64,000 bases of DNA from Arsenophonus sp. ET-KM2-MAG3 (GCA_052174135.1 JBQMRZ010000004.1:203410-267409); one strand, 5' to 3'. Positions 6,955-53,351 are shown, counted from the first letter of the stretch. Notes: generated by a model from the letters alone, not told the origin. A program made the numbers and translations.

Positions 6955-8290
6955 TATGAAATTATAGATTTTTTTTAAAAAACTAAAATATAAAAATAAT
7001 ATATAGAATTTAATACATCTTTAATTTACAAAATATCTTTTGTTTGGTAACATATAAAATCTTTATATTTACTCTCAATAAAATCTTTTTTTATTCATTT
7101 AAAAAATTTTTATTAACATCTACATATATAAAAAATATTTTATGAAAAAGTACTATTAATGAAATCAATAATGTTATTTTTTATTTTATTTTTTAGTTAA
7201 GTATAACTCTGTAACTTTATAAGTCTACTCTTTATTTTCTCTTTCTATCACTTAATATAGATGATATAATTTTAATTTTATTTAAAAATAGATCCCATTA
7301 AAATATAAAATATCGTACTATAAATTTTTCTTTTTTTTATTAATGCTTATTTTTTTTGCATTAACTATAAAATTAATAATCTAAATAATAGAGTTATAAT
7401 GTTATTTTTTTATCTATCGTATTTTACAGATTATTGATAGCTAAGAGATACGATAAACATTAGCGCAAATAAATTAATATTTTTCTAATAAGATTGTCAA
7501 AAAAATAAATGATTATTTAACGGAATAAACATGACAATTATTAATTTTTAGAAAATTTTTTCGATAAAAATACTTTTATAATATTAAAATTTTAATTTTT
7601 TTATTTAATTAGAAACTGATTAAATTATCTCATAATAAAAACGTTATAAAAGTATATAAAATACAATAAACTTTTTAGAATTTTTATTCTATGTCTGATA
7701 GATTTCCTACAAAGTAGTTAGCTATTGATGTTTTATATATTTTTTTGATTAGTCAATTTATTGTAATTATACGATAATTATCGTATATAAATTTATATTT
7801 TTTTATAAATAAATAATCAATATAAATTGAATTTTTATAATAAATTAAAGCTAATATAGTGCACTTGGTATACTTAATTAAGTAATAGTATTTTTTAATA
7901 AATTTAATAAATAAAAATATACTTCTCTTTATAAAAAATATTTTTATTTTATTTATATGTATTTATAGAGATTTTTACTTACTATTTGTAGATTAAATTA
8001 TAGTATTATGTTAATAGTATTTATTTTACTATTATTATCCTTTTTATCAAACTTTTTCTATTAATTAATAAATACTTCTATCCGCATTCATGTTTTATTG
8101 CTAATTAAATTCTTTGAAAATTTATGAAAACTCATGATTTAGCAAATATATTTTATATCAAATGACAATATAAATCATTAATTAACATATTAAAATTAAA
8201 TTAATTAACTTGAGGCTATTAATTAATTATATATTAAAAATCCTCAAATTGATAAAGAAAATAGTCAAATTTTTTCTTATTAATTTAAAT
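6955..8290 (+). pseudogene. xseA: Eroded fossil of exodeoxyribonuclease VII large subunit; many in-frame stops
   Basis: xseA is the divergent neighbour of guaB in E. coli, and the 1.5-kb desert fits a promoter gap plus a 1.37-kb gene. Three anchors lie in one frame (position = 1 mod 3). 7042-7047 gtt tgg gives VW (V30 W31 of ..GQVWISGE..). 7096-7107 cat tta aaa aat gives HLKN, against GHWYFTLKD with a 4-codon loss. 7612-7620 gaa act gat gives ETD, against AVGHETD. Flanking residues differ by AT-ward single-nucleotide changes. Boundaries are approximate. Confidence 0.45.
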
Positions 8291-8297
8291 ATTATCC

Positions 8298-9428
8298 TCA
8301 TAATAATATTTTTTTCATAATTTCATGATAAATAAGGTATAATTTATTAAGATCAATAATATTAACACATTCATTTGGTTTATGAATAGTTTCATTTAAA
8401 AGGCCTAATTCAATAATTTGTGCACCCATTTTAGCAATAAAACGACCATCAGATATTCCACCATCTGTTGATAATTGAGGTTGATAATAACAATATTTTT
8501 CTATAGCCTCACTGACAATATTAAATAATTTACCTTTTTTTGTTAAAAATGGATGACCAAATAATGACCATTTAATTTTATAATTAAATTGATATTTTTT
8601 TAATATTTTTTCAACTTTTTGGCGAATTTGTTGATCGGTAAGTACATTACTAAAACGAAAATTAAATTGTATAATTAATTCACTAGGAATAATATTATTA
8701 GTATTATTATCAGAATTAATGTTGAAAATTTGCATACTTGTTGGAGAAAAAGAATGATTACCAATATCCCATTTTTTATTAATCAGTTCATTTAAAAAAG
8801 GTAATGAATTATGTATCGGGTTATTAGCTAAATATGGATAAGCAATATGTCCCTGAACTCCGCAAATCACCACTTTAGCTGTTAATGAGCCTCGACGCCC
8901 ATTTTTAATAATATCACCAAGCTTAATTTGACTAGACGGTTCACCTATTATACAGTAATCAATTTGTTCATTGCGTGCTATTAATTTATCAACAACTTTT
9001 GCTGTTCCGTTAATAGCTTTAGCTTCTTCATCAGAGGTGATCAAAAAAGCTAATCGACCGGTATGGTTAGGAAAATTGCTAATAAATTTTTCAGCGGCTA
9101 TAATCATTGCAGCAAGAGAACCTTTCATATCAACAGCTCCTCGACCATAAAGAAGTCCGTCATTTAATATTGGAGTAAAAGGCGGGTAATGCCAATCTTG
9201 AACTGCTCCTGCCGGAACAACATCTGTGTGCCCAGCAAAGGCTAATGTTTTGCCTTGTTTTCCATGAAGTGCCCATAAATTTGTAGTATTGTTAAATGAC
9301 ATAACTTCAATTGAAAAACCAAGTTTTTTTAATTTATTAATTAAAATAACTTGACAACCATAATCATTAGGGCTAACAGAGGGCAATTGAATTAGTTTTT
9401 TCGTGAGTTTAATAATAGGACAAATCAT
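8298..9428 (-). CDS. dapE: succinyl-diaminopimelate desuccinylase
   Basis: The 376-aa ORF is collinear with E. coli DapE (LAFAGHTDVVP, GRGAVDMKGSLAAM, LITSDEE, GRRGSL, GGISDGRFIA). Confidence 0.95.
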   Translation of the reverse strand: MICPIIKLTKKLIQLPSVSPNDYGCQVILINKLKKLGFSIEVMSFNNTTNLWALHGKQGKTLAFAGHTDVVPAGAVQDWHYPPFTPILNDGLLYGRGAVDMKGSLAAMIIAAEKFISNFPNHTGRLAFLITSDEEAKAINGTAKVVDKLIARNEQIDYCIIGEPSSQIKLGDIIKNGRRGSLTAKVVICGVQGHIAYPYLANNPIHNSLPFLNELINKKWDIGNHSFSPTSMQIFNINSDNNTNNIIPSELIIQFNFRFSNVLTDQQIRQKVEKILKKYQFNYKIKWSLFGHPFLTKKGKLFNIVSEAIEKYCYYQPQLSTDGGISDGRFIAKMGAQIIELGLLNETIHKPNECVNIIDLNKLYLIYHEIMKKILL

Positions 9429-36354: not shown

Positions 36355-37533
36355 ATGCATTTTAGTAGAACGTTCTTAATTTCTTTTTTAATTTTGACGT
36401 TATTAATAGGATGTTCAACAGAAAAAGATTTTATAATGACACCACTTTTACCTAAAATAAATAATCAATTTACACCTTCTATTATCTGGCATCACTCAAT
36501 AGGAAATGGTAGTGGAAAATATTATTCTCAACTTTCACCAATCTATAATGATTCTATTGTTTATGCAGCAGATCGTAAAGGAATAGTAAAATCAATGGAT
36601 GCTACTTCAGGCAAAATATTATGGTCAATTAATTTATCAGAACAGATTGGTTTTTTGAAAGTTAATTTATCAACGGTGCTTTCTAGCGGATTAACGATTT
36701 CAGGAGATAAACTTTATATAGGAACAGAAATTGGTAAAGTTATTGCATTAAGTAAGATCAACGGGAAAATTATATGGGAAAAAGATGTTGCAGGAGAAGT
36801 GCTTTCCCAACCGGTAGTTAGTGATGGCATTTTATTGGTACATACAAGTAATGGTGTATTACAAGCGCTAGATTCACAAACCGGACAGAATAAATGGAAT
36901 ATTAATTTAGATATTTCAACGTTATCGATAAGAGGAAAATCAACGCCAGCTATCGCATATGGGATTGTAATTATTGGTAGTGATACCGGCCGTATTACTG
37001 CTATAATGCTTGATCAAGGACAGATTATTTGGCAACAATATATTTCTAAAATTTATGGTATAACTGAAATCGACCGTTTACATGATATTGATATAACGCC
37101 GGTTATTGATATCAATTCAGGTACTATTTTTGTTATTGCATATAATGGTGATTTAGTTGCAATTGATATACATTCCAGCAAAATTATATGGAAATGTAGC
37201 ATAGGATCAGTTAATAATATTATTATTTCTAATAATATTATTTATTTAGTTGATCAAAATAATTACATGCTGGCAATTTATAAAAACAATGGTGTTATCT
37301 TATGGACTCAAAATGCTTTATCAGATCGTAATTTAACCGCACCGATTATTTACGATGGTTACTTAGTGGTTGGTGATCAAAATGGTTATCTTTATTGGTT
37401 AAATATACACAATGGTCGATTTGTAGCATATAATAAACTTGATAATTCAGGATTACATAGTCGCCCAGTTATTGCTGGAGACAAATTGCTTATTCAGTCA
37501 AAAAATGGAACCATATACTTAATTAAACGTTAA
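36355..37533 (+). CDS. bamB: outer-membrane protein assembly factor BamB (lipoprotein)
   Basis: It has a lipobox LLIGC|S and is collinear with E. coli BamB (VYAADRKG, VAGEVLSQPVVSDG, GQIIWQQ, EIDRLHDID, DGRFVA). Confidence 0.92.
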   Translation: MHFSRTFLISFLILTLLIGCSTEKDFIMTPLLPKINNQFTPSIIWHHSIGNGSGKYYSQLSPIYNDSIVYAADRKGIVKSMDATSGKILWSINLSEQIGFLKVNLSTVLSSGLTISGDKLYIGTEIGKVIALSKINGKIIWEKDVAGEVLSQPVVSDGILLVHTSNGVLQALDSQTGQNKWNINLDISTLSIRGKSTPAIAYGIVIIGSDTGRITAIMLDQGQIIWQQYISKIYGITEIDRLHDIDITPVIDINSGTIFVIAYNGDLVAIDIHSSKIIWKCSIGSVNNIIISNNIIYLVDQNNYMLAIYKNNGVILWTQNALSDRNLTAPIIYDGYLVVGDQNGYLYWLNIHNGRFVAYNKLDNSGLHSRPVIAGDKLLIQSKNGTIYLIKR

Positions 37534-40092: not shown

Positions 40093-41006
40093 ATTAATTT
40101 TAATTATTACTAGATTAACATTTAATTATACACTTAATATTATTTGAGTTCATTTTATTATTGAGTAAGTTTATTAACATGAGAATAATAATATCAAAAT
40201 ATTAAATATCATAATTTACTGATATTGATAATAATAAAATACATACTTTAATTAAGTAAATTTATTATTTTTATAAAATTTTTTATAATTATAAACATAT
40301 AGTTGATGATCTAATTATTAGTTAGTAAAATTAACTATAATCAATCAATTTAGATTAATTATAAATATTTATATCTATTTTTACATTCATATTAATTTAA
40401 TATAGTTCTGATATTATTTAATGATATTATTATTTTTTTTTGATAAATTTTAATTATTTGAAAAAAAAATGGAAAATAATGTTAAAAAATAAAATTTTTA
40501 ATTTAATTTGAAAACAAATAGTTTAATTATAGACATAATAAATTATTTAATTTTTTAATCATTTATTCAACATAAGTAAAATTTTAAGACTACTATTAAC
40601 ATGTTATTTATTTTATTTTATTTTATTATCATTATTCTTATTTAAATAAAAAAATGAGAATTATTTGATTTATCTATAGAATATAAAAAAAAATAAAAAA
40701 TATTTCAATAAAGTTATTTGATTTTAAATAAACATTTATATTATTAAAGATTTATAAATTAATAAAAAATAAATAGATATTTTCTGATAGTAATATTAAA
40801 TTTGAGATATTACGGATTTGATTTTTTAGTAACTAAAATACGAAATAAAATTATCTGTATAATAATTAGAAAATATGATAATTATCAAAGCTATATTTAT
40901 TATTTACTTATTTAATTTTATAAAATTTAATTTTATGATAAAAATATAAATATACTAATGAGTTACTAAAAAATCAATTTGATAAAAAAAGTTTTTAATA
41001 AACCAT
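40093..41006 (-). pseudogene. amiA: Eroded fossil of N-acetylmuramoyl-L-alanine amidase AmiA, the upstream operon partner of hemF
   Basis: Two minus-strand anchors share a frame. 40818-40807 aat ccg taa tat reads NP*Y against DPGH (res 62-65). 40602-40579 atg tta ata gta gtc tta aaa ttt reads MLIVVLKF against MSIHADGF (res 130-137). ATG 41006 (MVY*KLF against MSTFKPL) lies 5 nt from the predicted start. The frame is stop-riddled. Confidence 0.4.
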
Positions 41007-42125: not shown

Positions 42126-42405
42126 TAATAGTAAACTACTAAATAGAATTCTCTCAATTAATGATAAAATAAACAAAACAATAAATAAGAAAGCATATGT
42201 AATCTTGCACTATGAATAAAATCTTTATATGGAAGTAAGTAAAATTAATTAATTTAATAATTATTAATTTATGTTATAAAAACATAAATTTTGGCACATC
42301 CATCAGATAATTAGTATAACTAATTATTTTTTATTAAAAGTGACTATAATTATAAGAAAATTGGTGATTTTAGTTAATACTTACAATTAATATATAAAAA
42401 TTTTA

Positions 42406-42910
42406 TATTTATAATCTATATGATAATAATCTCATTTATAATGTAAAAATTAATCAGTTTAGCTAATTTTTATTTTATTTATCATAAATGATTATAGATA
42501 TTAATATTAATTTTTTATTTTTCTTATAATAAGAATAAATAATATTTTAAATATTAAATCATTTTTTATAATTTTTTTTACCTTCTTTTCTTAAATACTA
42601 GAATTCTCCATTATTTAATTTAACAATATTAGTATCAAAATAAATAAATAATTTAATAACACTATATAGTTTAATAGAAAATTTTTAGTTTATTTTTAAA
42701 ATTTTATTAATAATATTCAACCTGAAAATAATTTCATTACTAGTAAGATTAATAAAAACATAATCATTAATAATTTTTAGTAAAATAACAGCTAAAACAT
42801 ATTTTATGTTAATAAATTTATCCAAAATCTTTGTAATAATATTAATATTGGATATCATCTTAATATACTTAAAGTTAATAATTCCGATTTATTAAGTAAG
42901 GGGGGTTCAT
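42406..42910 (-). pseudogene. crr: Eroded fossil of PTS glucose-specific EIIA component (Crr)
   Basis: It lies immediately downstream of ptsI on the same strand, with an ATG at 42910. From gga at 42885-42883 (G19) one frame runs to the end with these collinear matches. GIIN..NI..F matches G19, I21, N33, I34 and F42. 42729-42715 reads IFRLN against IFETN (both catalytic His residues lost). 42639-42601 reads FDTNIVKLNNGEF against FGIDTVELKGEGF. 42585-42580 reads EG against E110 G111. 42468-42415 reads KLAKLINFYIINEIIII* against ELIKLSGSVTVGETPVIR. There are several in-frame stops. Total length is about 505 nt, against a 510-nt intact gene. Confidence 0.6.
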
Positions 42911-42971
42911 TGATTTTCTCTAAACTATTTTTCTTATTTAGTTAAAAATTTATTGATAGTTTTAACATTTT

Positions 42972-44681
42972 TTAAAGTAAACGTTTAAGTGAATTCATTA
43001 ATTCTTTTGTTGTTGGTTGATTAAGAGCTTGTTCTGCTATTTTTTTTGCATCATTAAAATTTGAATTTCGAATAATTTTTTTAATAGTTGGGATTAAAAT
43101 AGCACTCATACTAAATTCATCTAATCCCATACCAAGTAATAATAGAGTAGCACGTTCATCACAAGCAAGTTCACCACACATACCCGTCCATTTGCCTTCA
43201 GCATGTGAAGCATCAATAACTTGTTTAATGAGTTTTAATACTGAAGGAGACATTGGATTATAAAGATGAGAAATTAAATTATTTCTGCGATCAACAGCTA
43301 AAGTATATTGTGTTAAATCATTAGTTCCAATACTAAAAAAATCGACTTCTTTAGCTAAATAATGAGCAATAACAGCAGCTGCTGGTGTTTCAATCATTAC
43401 TCCAACCTCAATCGATTGATCAAAAAAATATTTTTCTTTAATTAACTGTTTTTTTAATATTGTTAACTCTTCTTTCAAAGAATGAATTTCTTCTACAGAA
43501 ATAACCATTGGAAACATAATACGTAAATTACCAAAAACAGAGGCTCTTAAAATAGCTCGTAATTGAGCATGAAGAATTTCTTTACGATCAAGAGAAATAC
43601 GAATTGCTCGCCAGCCAAGAAAAGGATTTTCTTCTTTCGGTAAATTCATATAAGGAAGATTTTTATCGCCACCAATATCTATAGTACGAATAATAACAGT
43701 TTGCGGGTTCATGGATTCAGCAACTATTTTATAAGTCTGAAATTGTTCTTCTTCGCTAGGAAATTCGTTTCGATCCATAAATAAAAATTCAGTACGATAT
43801 AATCCTATCCCTTTAGCACCATTACGTTTAGCAACTTCTATATCACGTACAGTCCCAATATTTGCACAAACTTCAACTTGATGACCATCTAAAGTGATAG
43901 CTTGTAAATCTTTTAATTTTATAAGTGTTTTTTTTTCACGCAAATATTTTTCTTTAATTTGTTTAAATTTATTAATTTGATTTTCAGAAGGATTCTGATA
44001 AATATTATTATTAATTGCATCTAAAATAATATAATCATTTTCTTGAATATTTTTAGTTGCATTATTTACACCAACAATAGCTGGAATTTCTAATGATCTA
44101 GCCATAATTGAAGTATGAGAAGTACGCCCACCTAAATCTGTAATAAAACCAAGAACTTTTTTTAAGTTTAATTGTGCTGTTTCAGATGGAGTAAGATCTG
44201 CTGCAACTAAAATGATTTCTTCTGTAATTGAATTAAAATCAATAATAGGTAACCCTAAAATATTTTTTAGTAAACGTTTACCAATATCTTTGATATCAGC
44301 AGAACGCTCTTTAAGGTATTCGTTATTTAATTCTTCTAATATTCTTGTATGGCTTTTAATCACTTTTTCTGCTGCTGCATCAGCAGTTTTATACTCTTTT
44401 TTTATAAAATAAAGAATTTCATTTTCAAGTTCTTCATCTTCAAGAAGCATTATATGTCCTTCAAATATTTTTGCTTTTTCTTCACCAATATTTTTTTTTG
44501 TAATTTTTTTTATCTTTTTTAATTGCTCTATTGTTTTTTTTTGTCCAACAATAAAACGGTTAATTTCGTTCTTAATTTGATCATCAGAAATTTTCTTTTG
44601 ATTAATGATAATTGGTATTTCTTTTAAAATTAATACCTTCCCAAAAGTAATACCTGGCGATACTGAAATTCCTGAAATCAT
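42972..44681 (-). CDS. ptsI: PTS enzyme I (phosphoenolpyruvate-protein phosphotransferase)
   Basis: The ORF is collinear with E. coli PtsI from MISGI.. ([21 protein letters not shown] with the active-site His, [32 protein letters not shown]). The start is set at the internal Met (44681), preceded by AAGGAAAC. The ORF-track start at 44708 adds 9 non-homologous residues. Confidence 0.95.
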
Positions 44682-44822
44682 AAATGTTTCCTTACTGCTA
44701 AAATACAAAAAATAGTTAATATAGAAAACTATGAATTTAATACTTATGATTTAATAGATATCTATAAATAGAGAGGTATCTAAAAATAAATAGAATATAA
44801 ATATTATATTTCTTATATGTTA

Positions 44823-45080
44823 TTATTCTAATTTAACTATTAACTTTACTAAATGTTCTACTGCTTTCTGTTCATCTTCACCTTCTGCAGAGATAATAAT
44901 AACAGCTCCTTTAGTTAAGCCGAGTGTTTGTAATTTAAATAGACTTTTTGCGCTCACAGATTCATTGTTATATATAAGCATAATTTCAGAAGAAAAACTT
45001 TTTGCTTCTTTGACAAATTGAGCTGCTGGTCGCGTATGAAAGCCATTAGGTGTAGCAATAGTGACTTCTTTTTGGAACAT
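44823..45080 (-). CDS. ptsH: phosphocarrier protein HPr
   Basis: The 85-aa ORF reads [42 protein letters not shown] and includes the His15 and Ser46 regions. Confidence 0.97.
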
Positions 45081-45202
45081 ATTATTTTCCTCAATAAACT
45101 AAATATTTTTATTAGTAAATCCAAAATATTTTAGCTTAAATAATTTAAATTTGCGTATTACTTTTTAGTAAAAACAAAAGAAAAACACTTTGATTTCATT
45201 AT

Positions 45203-46171
45203 CAATCATAAACCTTATATATATCAATACTAAAATTGGACATGATAATTTTCTTAATTTATATTTTATATATAAATTTTCATTGTTTTTTATTCTTCTT
45301 ATTAATTTAAATTTTCTAAATAATTAATCGCTTAGATAATAAACTTATTTTTAAAAAAATATATTAATCTTAACATACACTAAACTTTGATTTAATCAGA
45401 TTAAAATACTTATTAATTTACGTTACTAGCAAAAAAAATAAAGTTATATTTAATAATGATTTTATTAGGAAAATGTAAAAATAACTAAAATATTATTTTG
45501 TTATATTAATATTACTGTTAATTTTATCTCTATATTAATTATAATGTCTAACTATATACAAGAGAAAATATTTTCTTCATACATTTTGTTTTTTTAAAAA
45601 AATTATATAATAAATTAACTAGTTATTTTTATTTTATTAATTTAACAAAATTATACTCTTTATTTTCACTGGAAATATTTTGTCTTGTTTGAACATTCCG
45701 ATCAACTTTGTAATATTTTAAGTGGTAATTAAAGAAAAAATACAGTAATATACTCTGATTACTAGTATAAAAAATAAAGTAATTTAATCCTATTATTACT
45801 GTGAAACAGTTATGAATAAAATCCTTGTGTAACGATACTTTATTTTATTTTAGTTAATCATTAAATTTTCTTAACTATATTTAATAGTCAGTACTATTTA
45901 TTTTTACTAACGTAAAATAATGATATGAAAGAGATAGTTAACTTAAAAAGAATTTTTAATAAGATTTATTAAATTATAAAATAAGCCTATTTATCTTATA
46001 GTTTTAATATTACAGCAATTAAATTTTTAACGATATTATCGAATATTTATTTAGACTCTAAAGTAATAATTTGCCATTTAAATCTAATAATTTTAATTAT
46101 TTTAATAAAGTTAGGGGATAATAGGGGGGGTCTTATTTTTTTTTTGCTTACTTTTAAGAAAATTTGATCAT
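45203..46171 (-). pseudogene. cysK: Eroded fossil of cysteine synthase A
   Basis: cysK is the upstream neighbour of ptsH in E. coli. An ATG at 46171 (minus strand) opens a frame that stays in register with CysK, with no net indel, for at least 286 codons. At identical codon numbers M1, K3, P16, L20, L29, K42 (the PLP lysine), I45, I50, L65, S70, L88, I98, R101, K102, V176, V185, A281 (gcg) and E286 are the same. More than 20 in-frame stops fall within the first 106 codons. Confidence 0.55.
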
Positions 46172-49100
46172 AATTTACATAAATAAATATTTTTTTTATG
46201 ATAATTAATATTATAAGTTATCTTATATACTCAAATAGTATTTTATTGCCTTAAACACTTCTTCTTTATATATTCCACTAAAATATTATAGCTATTAATT
46301 TTTATAAAAATTTTAATTATATTTTTAAAAGAAAAGCTTTGTTTGTTATAAATTTTGAATCTGTAAAAATGCACTATATAAATAATTATATAAGAATAAT
46401 CATCAATAATAATCATTATTTAATTGTTGTATAATTAAAAGTATAAATGCATATCAGTAATGATATCTCAGGCTTACACATTTAAAGATATTAATAACAT
46501 TGATTTTTTGTTAATAATCTTACAAAGTAATTATTTAAAATAATAATTACTTTGTTTAATTAAGAAGTGTAAGAATTAATAAATACATCATATATCAACA
46601 TAATAACAATTTGATTTTTTATATTTTTAATAAACGGGGGATTATTTATCATAAATAAATTGATATTATTAATTATATCTAGAAAAGCTTTTAGAAGCTA
46701 TTATTATATAGTGAAATCCTAAGAGGATTGTTATAATAAAATGTGACCTATAATTAAGTATCATTAATTTTATAATATCAATTATTATTTTATAATTTTA
46801 TTGAATATATACTCTATAAAAAGATTATTAATACAAATTCTTCAATAAATATACAAAATATACAATGAAAAAATTTTAAACGATTAATTTTAAACTTCTT
46901 GATAAAAGCACTAGAACGCTAAATTAAGCTTATATTTTTAGAAAAATGAAAATTTTTAATAAAAAACTATTTCAGTATATAAAGCTAATAATATTATTTA
47001 AAAAAAATTATTCATAATAAATATGCTTATTAATAAAGTTAATAAGAATTTTTTAATAAATTATTTTTTTTAAATAACTCACTTATACACTAAAATAGAT
47101 TATAGGGTAACTTAAAATACTTAAATAAATAATTTTGATAGAAAATTTCTAAAATTTATAATTTTAATTTGTAAAGAATTATCTGATTAATCATTATTTT
47201 TTATATAGTACTTTTATGCAAACTATATTAATGTAATGAAAAAAAAGAAGTTAATGAGGGATTATTAATATAAAAGTTAAATAAATTATTTAATATTCTT
47301 TTCTAATATTTCTTTTAGTTGCTTTTATATTAAAAATTAAAACTTTTAAAATAAATAAAATATTATCTAAATCAATAACGGATATTAATTTGAATAAAAG
47401 TATGAGCGATAACTACGCTTAGGAAATTAAAAAAAGAATATTAAAAATATTGATTGTAGTAAATATATAAAACAAAAGTAATTAGAAATATCATATGGTA
47501 AATAATAAATAAATAAATAATATGATAAATTTCATTAATTTGATAAATATCAAATATTTTTGTAAACTGTAATGTTTATATTTTATGATAAAAATCAAAA
47601 AATTATTATTAATAATAAACATTATTTATAAAAAATAAAATATAGAATATTAATAATGTTAATAAAAATTAAAAATAATCTTTTAATTAAAATACAAAAT
47701 TTTTTAAAAAAAAAGATAAATAATCTAGTTAAATTATAATAAAAATTAAATTATATATTATAAAATAATTATAATATTTATTTTTTTTGGTTTTATAGAT
47801 TCAATTAATTTGAAATAAATTTATTTTGTTGTTTTTAATTTATGCTAATATTTAGCGGTATTTAATAAATTAGTGGTATATCTAGCTTGGTGTCTATCGA
47901 TTATAGACTATAAAATAATTATACTTAAAATATTAAAAAATATTATTAATAAGTAGGATTATCAATTATATACTTCATTAAAGTATTAAGGTTTTAATAA
48001 AATTGATTGTTAAATCCTCCTTTTTTAATAGAAACAACATTTCTACATAAATTACAATAATCGCTAAATTTGATAGTTAATATTAAAAAATAAACTTTAT
48101 AATTTATTTAATTAATTGTAATTTTAATAAAAAAATTACTAACTGTTATTATTAATATTAATTTGTAAATTCAAATATAACATAAGTTATTTTAGTATTA
48201 AACATTAAAAATAGTGCTAACAAATACACATTATAATAAAATTATTAAAACTTTTATTATCAAAGTTTATTAGTAACGTTAATACTAAATAATCTTCTTT
48301 TTTATTTGTTATTTTAGTAATATGCTAATTTTGATAAATCGATATTATATATGTTTATTATTATAATATTTTAATAGAATTTTAAAATAAACATCAAGTA
48401 TATTTAGTGTATATAAAATATTATTAGCATAAAATGTAAATATTAATAGTCGATAATATAAATTATTACTTATCAATTTATTTTAAAAATCTTCCTAAAG
48501 GTATTAAATTTTGTTCTTATTGTAACTTTAAAATTCTGAACAATAAAATGATCAATTATATTCTGTTCAAATAAGATCTAACTAATTGTATTTTAAAATT
48601 AATAAAATTTTTTTTAACTATCTTGTTATTAAATTTTATTATCATTAAATCTTAAAACATTAAATATATTAAAATATCTTAAGCTAAAACTTTAAAATAA
48701 TTTAATATTTGCAGATTAAATTAGTGATACATAAGTTTTATATCTCATAAAAACAAATAAGTGTTATTACTTAGATGATTAAAAGTATTATATAGATAAT
48801 AGAATATTTTTTAATGAAGCGCTAGAAAATTTTAATAATACCTAAACTTCTCTTTTTTATGTATTTCCGATTAATTTATTATTTTATACATACAGATTAC
48901 TAATTTTTTATTAAAATATAAAAATTATTAATTATAATATTGTAAAATACAAGATAATGCATAAATCTTGTCTTTTTATTACTTATTAATACATTAATCA
49001 ATGTATTAATAAGTAGATTTTTATAGCCTAAAAATAAATAACTTGATATTCAATGTTCCTCATAATAAGTACTTATTAGATATCATTTTACGTATATGAA

Positions 49101-50859
49101 AATATCAAAATCTAGATATATTAAAATAACAAACAATTAAAGGATAAATATAACTACTTTATTTTATATTTGGAAAGCTCTATTATTAATTAATTTTGTT
49201 CTTTAATAAAAAAATCTTTATTAAAAAGATATCAAATACTTATATGTAAAAAAAGAAATCTTTTAAGTATTTATACTATTTTAATACCATTACAAGTAAT
49301 CAAAAAAAAAATAAAAATTTGTTGTTTAACTAAAAAGTTAATTGAGGATTCAATCTCATATTAATTATAAGTATTAAATTAATATATACTAAAAAGTCAA
49401 TAACTACCCTCTTAGATAAATATATAAATACTTATAAGATGAAAATCAGCTAGTTATTTATTTTTTATTTTACTTTTAGTAAAATAAAAAATAATTTTAT
49501 TCAAGATATGAAAACTGATGAAATAATAAGCGTTTGATTTATTAAAGATGCCTCTTTAATATAAAATTAAATCTGTTAATTTCTATTAAAATAGACAATA
49601 AACTATTCTAATTTAAATTTTCTCTTTTTTTAAGAAACATGTATTATAAATAGATATTAAGTTTTACTTATCAGTTATTTATTAAATAAATGATAATATT
49701 GAATTTTACTTACTTTTATTTTAAGAGAATAGATATCACAGGCAATAAAACACTACATTAAAATTAATTGTTATTTAATAAGAAATAATAAAAATATTTT
49801 TTTAAATTAATGTAATTTTAAAAAATTCAACTTAATGTTTTATTGAAAAATTTAATATATTTTATTAATTCCTATATAATCATTAATTAATTAATAACAT
49901 TATACAGCATTATCAATTATTATGAAATTTAACTATCAGAAGTACTTTTATAAAAATACTTAGATTTATAGCCACTAATTTTCAATATAGGAGAAATAAA
50001 TTATTTTTTGTAAAAAGATAGTGTCGATTTATTACAAATTTTTAACACAATAACTCTTCTTAAAATATTAGCCACTGATATTGGATTAAATTCCTATAAT
50101 GTCATTTATTACTTGTAATAATTTAAAAATTAATTAACTTTTTGATTTTTTTTAGTTATGAACTTTAATGATATTAAAGATATATATATTAAAATAAATA
50201 ATAATTTTATTGAAATATTTAAAGGCATTAATTTAAATAAAAAAGCTTTATTTATAATAATAAAGTATAATGGTTTAAATACTCTATAATTCAAACCCAT
50301 GCTGAATAACGTTATTTTAACATTAGTAAATTAAATAAATTAGATAACGTAATATCATTTATACTTATACTTATACTTATTCAAGTATATTATCATTAAT
50401 AATTAAATTATTAACTATCTGTAATTATTAACATATTATTAGATTTAGAGTAAATAAAAAAATAACATATATAATAAAAAATTATAATTTTCGTATTATA
50501 TAATAAAGTGATAAAATAAAGAATAGAATAATTGCTTACATTAATTATATTCTAAGATGTTTTTATAATTTAATATAAAATTAATAATATTAAAGTATAT
50601 ATTTATTACTAATGAGCATTAAATTTACAAAATTTATATTTTATTAAAATCAAGCTTTATAAAAATTTATAATCTAATAAAATTTAAGCGATATTTGATG
50701 AGTTTTAATTCATATATCTAAAATATCATTTACCATCAGATTATTTTTTGTGTAATTAAAAATTAAATTATTGTAGTCACTCAGAGTCCTAATGTTAAAT
50801 CTTAATTAGATATATAATTATACTGATAATTTAATTATAAATAATAATGAGGATAAATA

Positions 50860-52064: not shown

Positions 52065-53351
52065 ATGCAAGCCATAACAATACAACCAATCTCTTACATT
52101 GAAGGTACAATTAATCTTCTTGGCTCAAAAAGTATTTCTAATCGAGTATTATTATTAGCTGCATTAGCACAAGGTAAAACTACACTAACCAATCTTCTCG
52201 CTAGTGAGGACATTCGTTATATGCTTAATGCTTTAACAATATTAGGCATTGAATATCAATTATCTAATAATCTCACAACATGCACTGTAAAAGGCCTAGG
52301 GCACTGCTTTAATTATAAAAAAGGTTTAGAGATATTTCTTGGTAATACTGGTACAGCTATGAGATCATTAAGTGCTATTCTAGCATTAGCTGACAATGAT
52401 ATTATCTTAACTGGAGAGCAAAGAATGAAAGAACGCCCCATTGCTCATCTCATTAATGCACTTCAAGAGGGCGGTGCAAATATTGAATATCTTAACAAAC
52501 AAGGTTATCCGCCAATAAGAATAAAAGGTGGTTTTGTTGGTGGTTACATTACAATAGATGGAAGCGTTTCTAGTCAGTTTTTAACTGCACTTTTAATGAC
52601 TTCACCTTTAGCTCCTAGAGATACGATTATTCAGATAAAAGGAAGGCTTGTTTCTAAACCTTATATTGACATTACTATTGCATTAATGCGTAGTTTTGGC
52701 ATTGAAGTAATAAATCAATATTATTATCGTTTTCATATTAAAGGCAAACAACAATATATTTCACCAAAGAATTATCTTGTGGAAGGTGATGCCTCTTCAG
52801 CATCTTATTTTTTAGCTGCTGCAGCAATTAAAGGTGGTAAAGTTAAAGTAACAGGTATTAATAAGTATAGCTTACAAGGTGATACGCAATTTTCTTTTAT
52901 ACTTGAAAAAATGGGAGCTAAAATACATTGGGGTAAAGATTTCATTGAATGTCAAAGAGGTGATAAGTTGATTGGCATTGATATGGATATGAATGCGATC
53001 CCAGATGCAGCAATGACGATTGCAATTTTAGCTCTATTTGCTAAAGGAAAAACAATTATTCGTAATATTTATAACTGGCGTGTAAAAGAAAGTGATAGAT
53101 TAACTGCGCTAGCAACTGAATTATCAAAAGTTGGTGCTACCATAGAAGAGGGATATGACTATATTTGTATTTTTCCACCAAAATTATTAAAGTATGCTAA
53201 AATAGCAACTTACAATGATCATCGTATAGCAATGTGTTTTTCACTTGTTGCTTTATCAGATACTCCAATCACTATTTTAGATCCAAATTGTATAACTAAA
53301 ACTTTCCCAGACTATTTTAATCAGCTAAAAAAAATAAGTTATCGATATTAG
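52065..53351 (+). CDS. aroA: 3-phosphoshikimate 1-carboxyvinyltransferase (EPSP synthase)
   Basis: The 428-aa ORF is collinear with E. coli AroA ([71 protein letters not shown]). Confidence 0.95.

Follow-up and report, generated by a model that had tools for sequence, protein, structure and literature searches.

In Escherichia coli, and more broadly in the Enterobacterales and the Morganellaceae, the genes for HPr (ptsH), Enzyme I (EI; ptsI) and EIIA-Glc (crr) lie together as ptsHI-crr, and EI and HPr usually serve to phosphorylate an EII that has an EIIA domain of its own (ManXYZ, NagE, MtlA and others). Among insect symbionts, Serratia symbiotica from Cinara cedri is a familiar example of a gene-poor, junk-rich genome whose long AT-rich spacers are the remains of dead genes. 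Sugar uptake in Buchnera aphidicola relies on a minimal phosphotransferase system (PTS) that includes PtsH and PtsI; Crr and PtsG (and MtlA) are kept together with PtsHI in the Buchnera of Acyrthosiphon, Schizaphis and Baizongia, and PtsG, Crr, PtsHI and MtlA are all lost in the Buchnera of Cinara cedri (PMC3246468). Plant-pathogenic strains encode several phosphotransferase systems (PMC12090721), and the PTS goes unmentioned in the Arsenophonus genome papers PMC6167482 and PMC10654098. In the literature, we found no mention of the ET-YP4 or ER-HX2 MAGs with which we compare our locus below.

Here we analyze a 64,000-nt stretch of Arsenophonus sp. ET-KM2-MAG3 (hereafter the window) that carries intact ptsH and ptsI genes and the remains of crr. 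Gene order and orientation are as in the ptsHI-crr of E. coli, the Enterobacterales and the Morganellaceae, the gap between ptsI and crr is 61 nt (40 nt in E. coli, 48-54 nt in Arsenophonus relatives), and identity to the E. coli proteins is 70% for PtsI and 76% for HPr. Unlike in the Enterobacterales operon, the third gene is dead here, and the flanking cysK, pdxK and cysM have been erased beyond recognition. The window also departs from the all-or-none pattern of Buchnera, having lost crr alone and retained ptsHI. With Serratia symbiotica of Cinara cedri, which belongs to another lineage, it shares a low coding density and long AT-rich spacers, but the crr fossil described here can be read over its full length, and a sister genome allows it to be dated. 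A further parallel comes from the Arsenophonus symbiont of the whitefly Aleurodicus dispersus (ARAD; L005), where crr is likewise broken at this position behind intact ptsH and ptsI, although as the product of an independent and younger event.

Genomic setting and the state of ptsH and ptsI

The window is about 44.5% coding, with a GC content of 13-15% in its long spacers and 22-34% in gene-bearing stretches. Its intact genes include guaA, guaB, dapE, a lysO-like gene, ybjG, a serine/threonine transporter gene, gpmA, pepB and ndk; rlmN, rodZ, ispG, hisS, a yfgM-like gene, bamB, der and hemF, along with ptsI and ptsH themselves; and serC, aroA, cmk, rpsA, an IHF/HU-family gene, an msbA-like gene, lpxK and kdsB. 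Around ptsI, the genes follow the same order as in Arsenophonus sp. ET-YP4-MAG3 (L001), the closest relative in our comparison, and the spacer upstream of ptsH holds 3.7 kb (46357-50027) that are absent from that genome. The interval between ptsI and hemF measures 2882 nt in the window, 2366 nt in ET-YP4-MAG3 and 3720 nt in A. nilaparvatae, whose interval contains four live genes.

Within this neighborhood the crr fossil is the best-preserved dead gene. Of the neighbors that ptsHI-crr has in A. nilaparvatae or E. coli, a ypeA-like acetyltransferase gene alone has left a trace in the window, on the plus strand and oriented as expected, with scores of 50-61 and an end near 40906-40912; searches with the frameshift-aware aligner for fossils of cysK, cysZ, zipA, ligA, pdxK, cysM, amiA and yfeY returned noise-level scores of 39 or less. 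A promoter scan gave promoter-like sites at chance level, with no terminator-like signal and nothing useful near the fossil, and an Rfam scan of the whole window returned no RNA family.

Both general PTS genes are complete. ptsH (44823-45080, minus strand) encodes an 85-aa HPr that keeps His15 and Ser46, and ptsI (42972-44681, minus strand) encodes a 569-aa EI that starts with MISGIS and keeps His189 and Cys502; alignment to the E. coli proteins shows that N12 and R17 of HPr and R296, R332, E431, N454 and D455 of EI are conserved as well. PtsI matches the NCBIfam profile NF008382 with 1016.8 bits (cut-off 824) over positions 1-567 of 575, and HPr covers positions 1-85 of 85 in NF008104 with 150.8 bits, just under the equivalog cut-off of 153, and matches TIGR01003 with 94.4 bits (cut-off 47.9). 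The first-pass annotation of this DNA had called both genes intact, and their full length, family-profile matches and complete set of catalytic residues bear this out. In the ORF listing, the ptsI frame extends 5' to a TTG at 44708; since the ptsI of relatives also begins with MISGIS, this upstream start is not needed.

Substitution patterns indicate that the two genes are not only complete but constrained. Between the window and ET-YP4-MAG3, ptsI has a dN of 0.038 and a dS of 0.178 (omega 0.21), made up of 49.5 nonsynonymous differences over 1351 sites and 56.5 synonymous differences over 356 sites (binomial P = 4e-13 against neutrality), and ptsH has an omega of 0.115 with a dS of 0.31. For ptsHI, omega lies at 0.12-0.23 in comparisons with ER-HX2-MAG3 (L004) and with two further related loci (L077 and L003). 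PtsI identity is 92% to ET-YP4-MAG3 and 79-83% to other Arsenophonus and Phlomobacter genomes. Judged by these ratios, ptsH and ptsI are under purifying selection relative to ET-YP4-MAG3, with the proviso that omega is an average over the entire period after the two lineages separated, so that a very recent relaxation would escape detection.

The crr fossil

On the 3' side of ptsI and on the same minus strand, the 61-nt spacer (42911-42971), in which DNA alignment reveals a degraded ribosome-binding site (AGAG, compared with GGAG in relatives), leads into a 507-nt crr (EIIA-Glc) pseudogene (42404-42910) that is recovered by tblastn, frameshift-aware alignment, Pfam and DNA alignment alike. The start ATG is still present at 42910-42908, with 61 nt between it and the ptsI stop, the old stop codon lies at 42406-42404, and the DNA aligns base for base with the crr of L003, L007 and L077. 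The first-pass annotation had described a fossil of ancestral length, which the 507 nt confirm when set against 504-510 nt for intact orthologues (DNA alignment, three Arsenophonus genomes), and the boundary that it placed at 42406 was right.

The identity of the fossil was established with Crr proteins from related Arsenophonus and Phlomobacter loci as queries (the E. coli Crr sequence matched that of locus L069 at 100%). Across the 64-kb window, tblastn gave one match only, at 42849-42565 over residues 20-116 (36% identity, E = 4.5e-11 with composition correction), with the next best at E = 0.77; a weak match inside bamB (36697-36888) proved to be an artefact that is gone under composition correction. 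A custom three-frame aligner permitting frameshifts carried the alignment as far as 42419, which corresponds to residue 165 of 169, and the resulting score of 152 lies far above the null from 72 equally AT-rich spacer segments of the same window (25.9 ± 3.3, maximum 39; z of about 38). The C-terminal 58 residues alone scored 52, compared with 19.4 ± 2.8 in a null of 244 (maximum 30) and with 20.0 ± 3.1 in 200 Markov resamples of the same segment (maximum 32). In the read-through translation of the fossil, the sole Pfam family is PF00358 (PTS_EIIA_1; E = 9.7e-5, 22.5 bits); the score does not reach the gathering threshold of 27.2, which is no surprise for a wrecked gene, and by this profile comparison the match shows descent from the EIIA-Glc family, not a scoring member of it. 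Over 13,373 nt that include the fossil, the window agrees without a mismatch with an independent Logan assembly of run SRR34985939.

The damage is extensive. Five in-register stops interrupt the fossil, at codons 15 (42862), 76 (42687-42685), 105 (42600), 129 (42526) and 166 (42418), and nine indels, most of them frame-shifting, add 9 nt in five small insertions and remove 10 nt in four small deletions; the net length change is about -3 nt. Two of the replaced codons once encoded the active-site histidine (His75) and the phospho-accepting histidine (His90) of EIIA-Glc in E. coli numbering: the His75 codon (His76 counting Met; 42685-42687, minus strand) is now the stop TAA, a change common to ET-YP4-MAG3, and the His90 codon (His91 counting Met; 42640-42642, minus strand) is now TAT (Tyr). 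An uninterrupted frame of about 167-169 codons no longer exists, 52 of 170 codons still give the amino acid of A. nilaparvatae Crr, and the GC content of 13.6% sits with the spacers (12.6-15%) rather than with ptsI (28%) or ptsH (32%). With these lesions, EIIA-Glc cannot be made from this locus.

Several stops and the replacement of both catalytic histidines had already been reported in the first-pass annotation, in agreement with the lesions above, but the single frame that it traced from G19 to the C-terminus does not hold up: only residues from about 16 to 116 share one frame, and the C-terminal third, NEIIII included, needs four frameshifts (near 42576, 42548, 42514 and 42476; three +1 and one -1). 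The matches that it listed between FDTNIVKLNNGEF and FGIDTVELKGEGF, at EG, and between NEIIII and GET(V/P)I were correctly identified, whereas IFRLN had been mispaired with IFETN; it aligns instead with I(V/L)APVD (residues 60-65), and the counterpart of IFETN in the fossil is ILKIN, followed by the stop.

The ORF listing also contains a residual 57-aa frame (42685-42858, minus strand) that corresponds to Crr residues from about 17 to 75 and ends at the His75 stop. A gene caller predicts it as a gene. We reject it as a functional ORF, given that it has no Pfam match and is not conserved in ET-YP4-MAG3, where stops and indels break the register.

Timing of the loss of crr

Downstream of ptsI in ET-YP4-MAG3 and ER-HX2-MAG3 there is no protein-level match to Crr, and in both genomes the DNA at this position aligns with the crr fossil of the window. 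We made these comparisons with MAFFT alignments and strict blastn, as low-stringency blastn against ET-YP4-MAG3 yields AT-rich noise. The window and ET-YP4-MAG3 fossils are 80% identical over 476 aligned positions, a Jukes-Cantor (JC) distance of 0.23 that falls between the dS values of ptsI (0.18) and ptsH (0.31), and the distance to the ER-HX2-MAG3 fossil is 0.46, compared with a dS of 0.49-0.56. Divergence close to the synonymous rate, a non-coding-like GC content and disabling lesions together are what is found in a neutrally evolving pseudogene.

Several of the lesions are held in common. The window and ET-YP4-MAG3 fossils both have the TAA at His75 and in-register stops at codon 105 and codon 166. 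They also share two or three indels, which fall in A/T runs that can be aligned in more than one way. Because the two fossils have diverged at the neutral rate and have these lesions in common, crr was dead before the window and ET-YP4-MAG3 split, and a single inactivation before that split is the simplest reading of the aligned fossils. ER-HX2-MAG3 also has the stop at codon 166, and at the His75 codon it has TAT, which could be a step between CAT and TAA; crr was probably inactivated before ER-HX2-MAG3 branched off.

A neighbor-joining tree of PtsI, which represents one protein and in which long-branch attraction among AT-rich genomes is possible, pairs the window and ET-YP4 at a bootstrap of 100 and places ER-HX2 next to this pair at 95, so that all three genomes carrying this fossil fall together, as sister to two louse-fly-type symbionts with intact crr. 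ARAD lies elsewhere in the tree, grouping with A. nilaparvatae and Phlomobacter, both of which have intact crr. Its own crr is frameshifted beside intact ptsH and ptsI, retains 67% nucleotide identity to intact crr (tblastn E = 6e-19), and has lesions that differ from those of the window. The ARAD pseudogene is therefore separate and younger, and loss of crr with retention of ptsHI has occurred at least twice in the clade. The other three crr fossils are 459-485 nt long; as they are shorter and deletion evidently occurs in the clade, the exact length kept in the window is partly luck.

Enzyme I and HPr without Crr

We consider it likely, with a probability of roughly 0.8, that crr is a dead relic and that EI and HPr are maintained by selection for phosphotransfer to a partner other than Crr, likely an EII with its own EIIA. 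The ancestral ptsH-ptsI-crr operon has lost its third gene alone, and crr has drifted neutrally until its base composition equalled that of the surrounding junk DNA; under this reading, EI and HPr would still carry out PEP-dependent phosphotransfer. The likeliest partner would be a sugar-specific EII such as ManXYZ, or a fused EIICBA such as NagE or MtlA, which would supply sugar phosphate to a retained glycolysis; gpmA is kept in the window. Since ptsH and ptsI have remained under selection since crr died, the job of EI and HPr does not need Crr. The fructose PTS brings its own HPr-like domain, and as HPr itself is constrained here, a fructose system alone is an insufficient explanation. The first-pass annotation likewise proposed that EI and HPr serve another EII with its own EIIA domain, or a regulatory role, and took PtsG-type uptake and EIIA-Glc-based catabolite control to be lost. 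The EIIA domain of NagE can replace Crr towards PtsG in E. coli, so that loss of crr alone proves neither the loss of ptsG nor that of cAMP-CRP control.

The 64-kb window contains neither an EII gene nor a recognizable EII fossil; E. coli ManX, ManY, ManZ, NagE, PtsG and MurP gave no match to it at E ≤ 1, and the 6-kb flanks of 80 related ptsI loci hold no EII genes. When E. coli ManX was compared with a protein database, the 120 best matches were all from Enterobacteriaceae at 92-99% identity, a set in which diverged symbiont orthologues could not surface.

The absence of EII genes and fossils from the window is also what would be expected if EI and HPr were kept without any EII, as a stub with a regulatory or metabolic role, for instance through binding of HPr or EI to metabolic enzymes or through EI-mediated exchange between pyruvate and PEP. 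Such a stub would account equally for the constraint on ptsHI, and EI is reported to support reverse flux from pyruvate to PEP in E. coli (PMC5290146). The window is a small sample of a genome of about 1 Mb, though, which weakens the argument from missing EII genes. To our knowledge, other reduced insect symbionts with ptsHI also retain at least one EII, and genome reduction usually removes the regulatory targets of HPr at an early stage; we therefore regard an EII-less role as unlikely. Its extension to the whole group, in which the window, ET-YP4, ER-HX2 and, independently, ARAD would all possess a permease-free EI-HPr module for PEP/pyruvate balance or regulation, seems to us about as unlikely. 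Massive decay of the genome, with 44.5% coding content and adjoining genes erased, could instead suggest that the whole operon is on its way out, with ptsH and ptsI no longer needed and merely not yet hit. We hold this to be very unlikely, as neither gene is truncated or lacks a catalytic residue, omega stayed at 0.12-0.21 while the neighboring crr fossil diverged by 0.23 substitutions per site, and both genes are also intact in ET-YP4-MAG3, ER-HX2-MAG3 and ARAD, in each case after crr was lost.

Two further readings concern the fossil itself. As the data come from 64 kb of the genome, a functional crr could lie elsewhere, with the fossil as the remnant of a relocated gene; but the window has no second crr match, the fossil stands at the ancestral operon position, three related genomes carry a fossil at the same place, and duplication and relocation are rare in reduced symbionts, all of which make relocation highly improbable. 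Three-frame translations of DNA with 13.6% GC look alike, and similarity to Crr might be a chance product of an AT-rich sequence whose translation is rich in I, K, N and L. This is scarcely credible and we reject it, given the composition-corrected E value of 4.5e-11, the z of about 38 against spacers of the same composition, the correct position, orientation and length, and PTS_EIIA_1 as the sole family match.

The decay of crr beside live ptsHI is a new instance of a known event and belongs to ordinary endosymbiont gene decay. Retention of the general PTS proteins with loss of one sugar-specific component is an expected pattern and carries little weight alone; the value of this locus is as a clean, datable example, with a fossil that is legible from its start codon to its old stop and lesions that are common to a sister genome. 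The fossil can also serve to gauge, locally, how fast neutral substitutions and indels accumulate in this genome. For the symbiont itself, the loss constrains which sugars are taken from the host, with no Crr-dependent permeases (PtsG, TreB, MalX, MurP) at its disposal unless another EIIA substitutes.

Gene remnants and spurious candidates around the crr fossil

Within the crr fossil, the EIIA-Glc pseudogene at 42404-42910 (-), a gene caller reports a 57-aa open reading frame (42685-42858, - strand; L081 11824-11997) without a Pfam family. We rejected this frame as a gene, as it is simply a segment of the fossil running from an internal ATG to the stop that replaces the catalytic His75. The N-terminal part of Crr also gives a weak tblastn hit to 36697-36888 (+), inside bamB (E ~1e-4 without composition correction). 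This hit was likewise discarded as a compositional artefact, since it disappeared when the correction was applied.

The interval between the crr fossil and hemF probably holds a further remnant, a ypeA-like acetyltransferase fossil at ~40700-40912 (+), to judge from frameshift-aware alignment scores of 61 against the A. nilaparvatae protein and 50 against E. coli YpeA (background <=39). The orientation of this stretch matches expectation.

Spacers and comparison with the sister genome

Coding sequence makes up only ~44.5% of the 64-kb window, with spacers of 2-6 kb at 12-15% GC lying between genes of 22-34% GC, and no tRNA or other Rfam family was found anywhere in it. The intergenic gap between ptsH and ptsI (44682-44822) measures 141 nt, compared with ~143 nt at the ptsI locus of the closest relative, Arsenophonus sp. 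ET-YP4-MAG3 (L001), and 44 nt in E. coli.

In alignment, the ptsH-serC spacer of ET-YP4-MAG3 matches only the two ends of its counterpart in the window (45081-46356 and 50028-50859, ~80% identity), leaving 3.7 kb of AT-rich non-coding DNA at 46357-50027, in which no gene fossil is recognisable, without a counterpart. This difference is either a large deletion in ET-YP4-MAG3 or an insertion in the window. The two assembled sequences also differ at aroA (EPSP synthase), which is intact in the window (52065-53351, + strand, 428 aa), whereas at L001 1043-2334 its ends are matched by only two open reading frames of 100 and 124 aa, suggesting that the gene is broken there or that this MAG contains errors.

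A separate crr pseudogene in the ARAD symbiont

The Arsenophonus symbiont of Aleurodicus dispersus (strain ARAD) also carries a crr pseudogene adjoining intact ptsH and ptsI (L005, its ptsI locus, 7775-8300), with lesions comprising stops, a 30-nt deletion, frameshifts and replacement of His75 by Asn. This pseudogene is independent of the one in the window, and younger.
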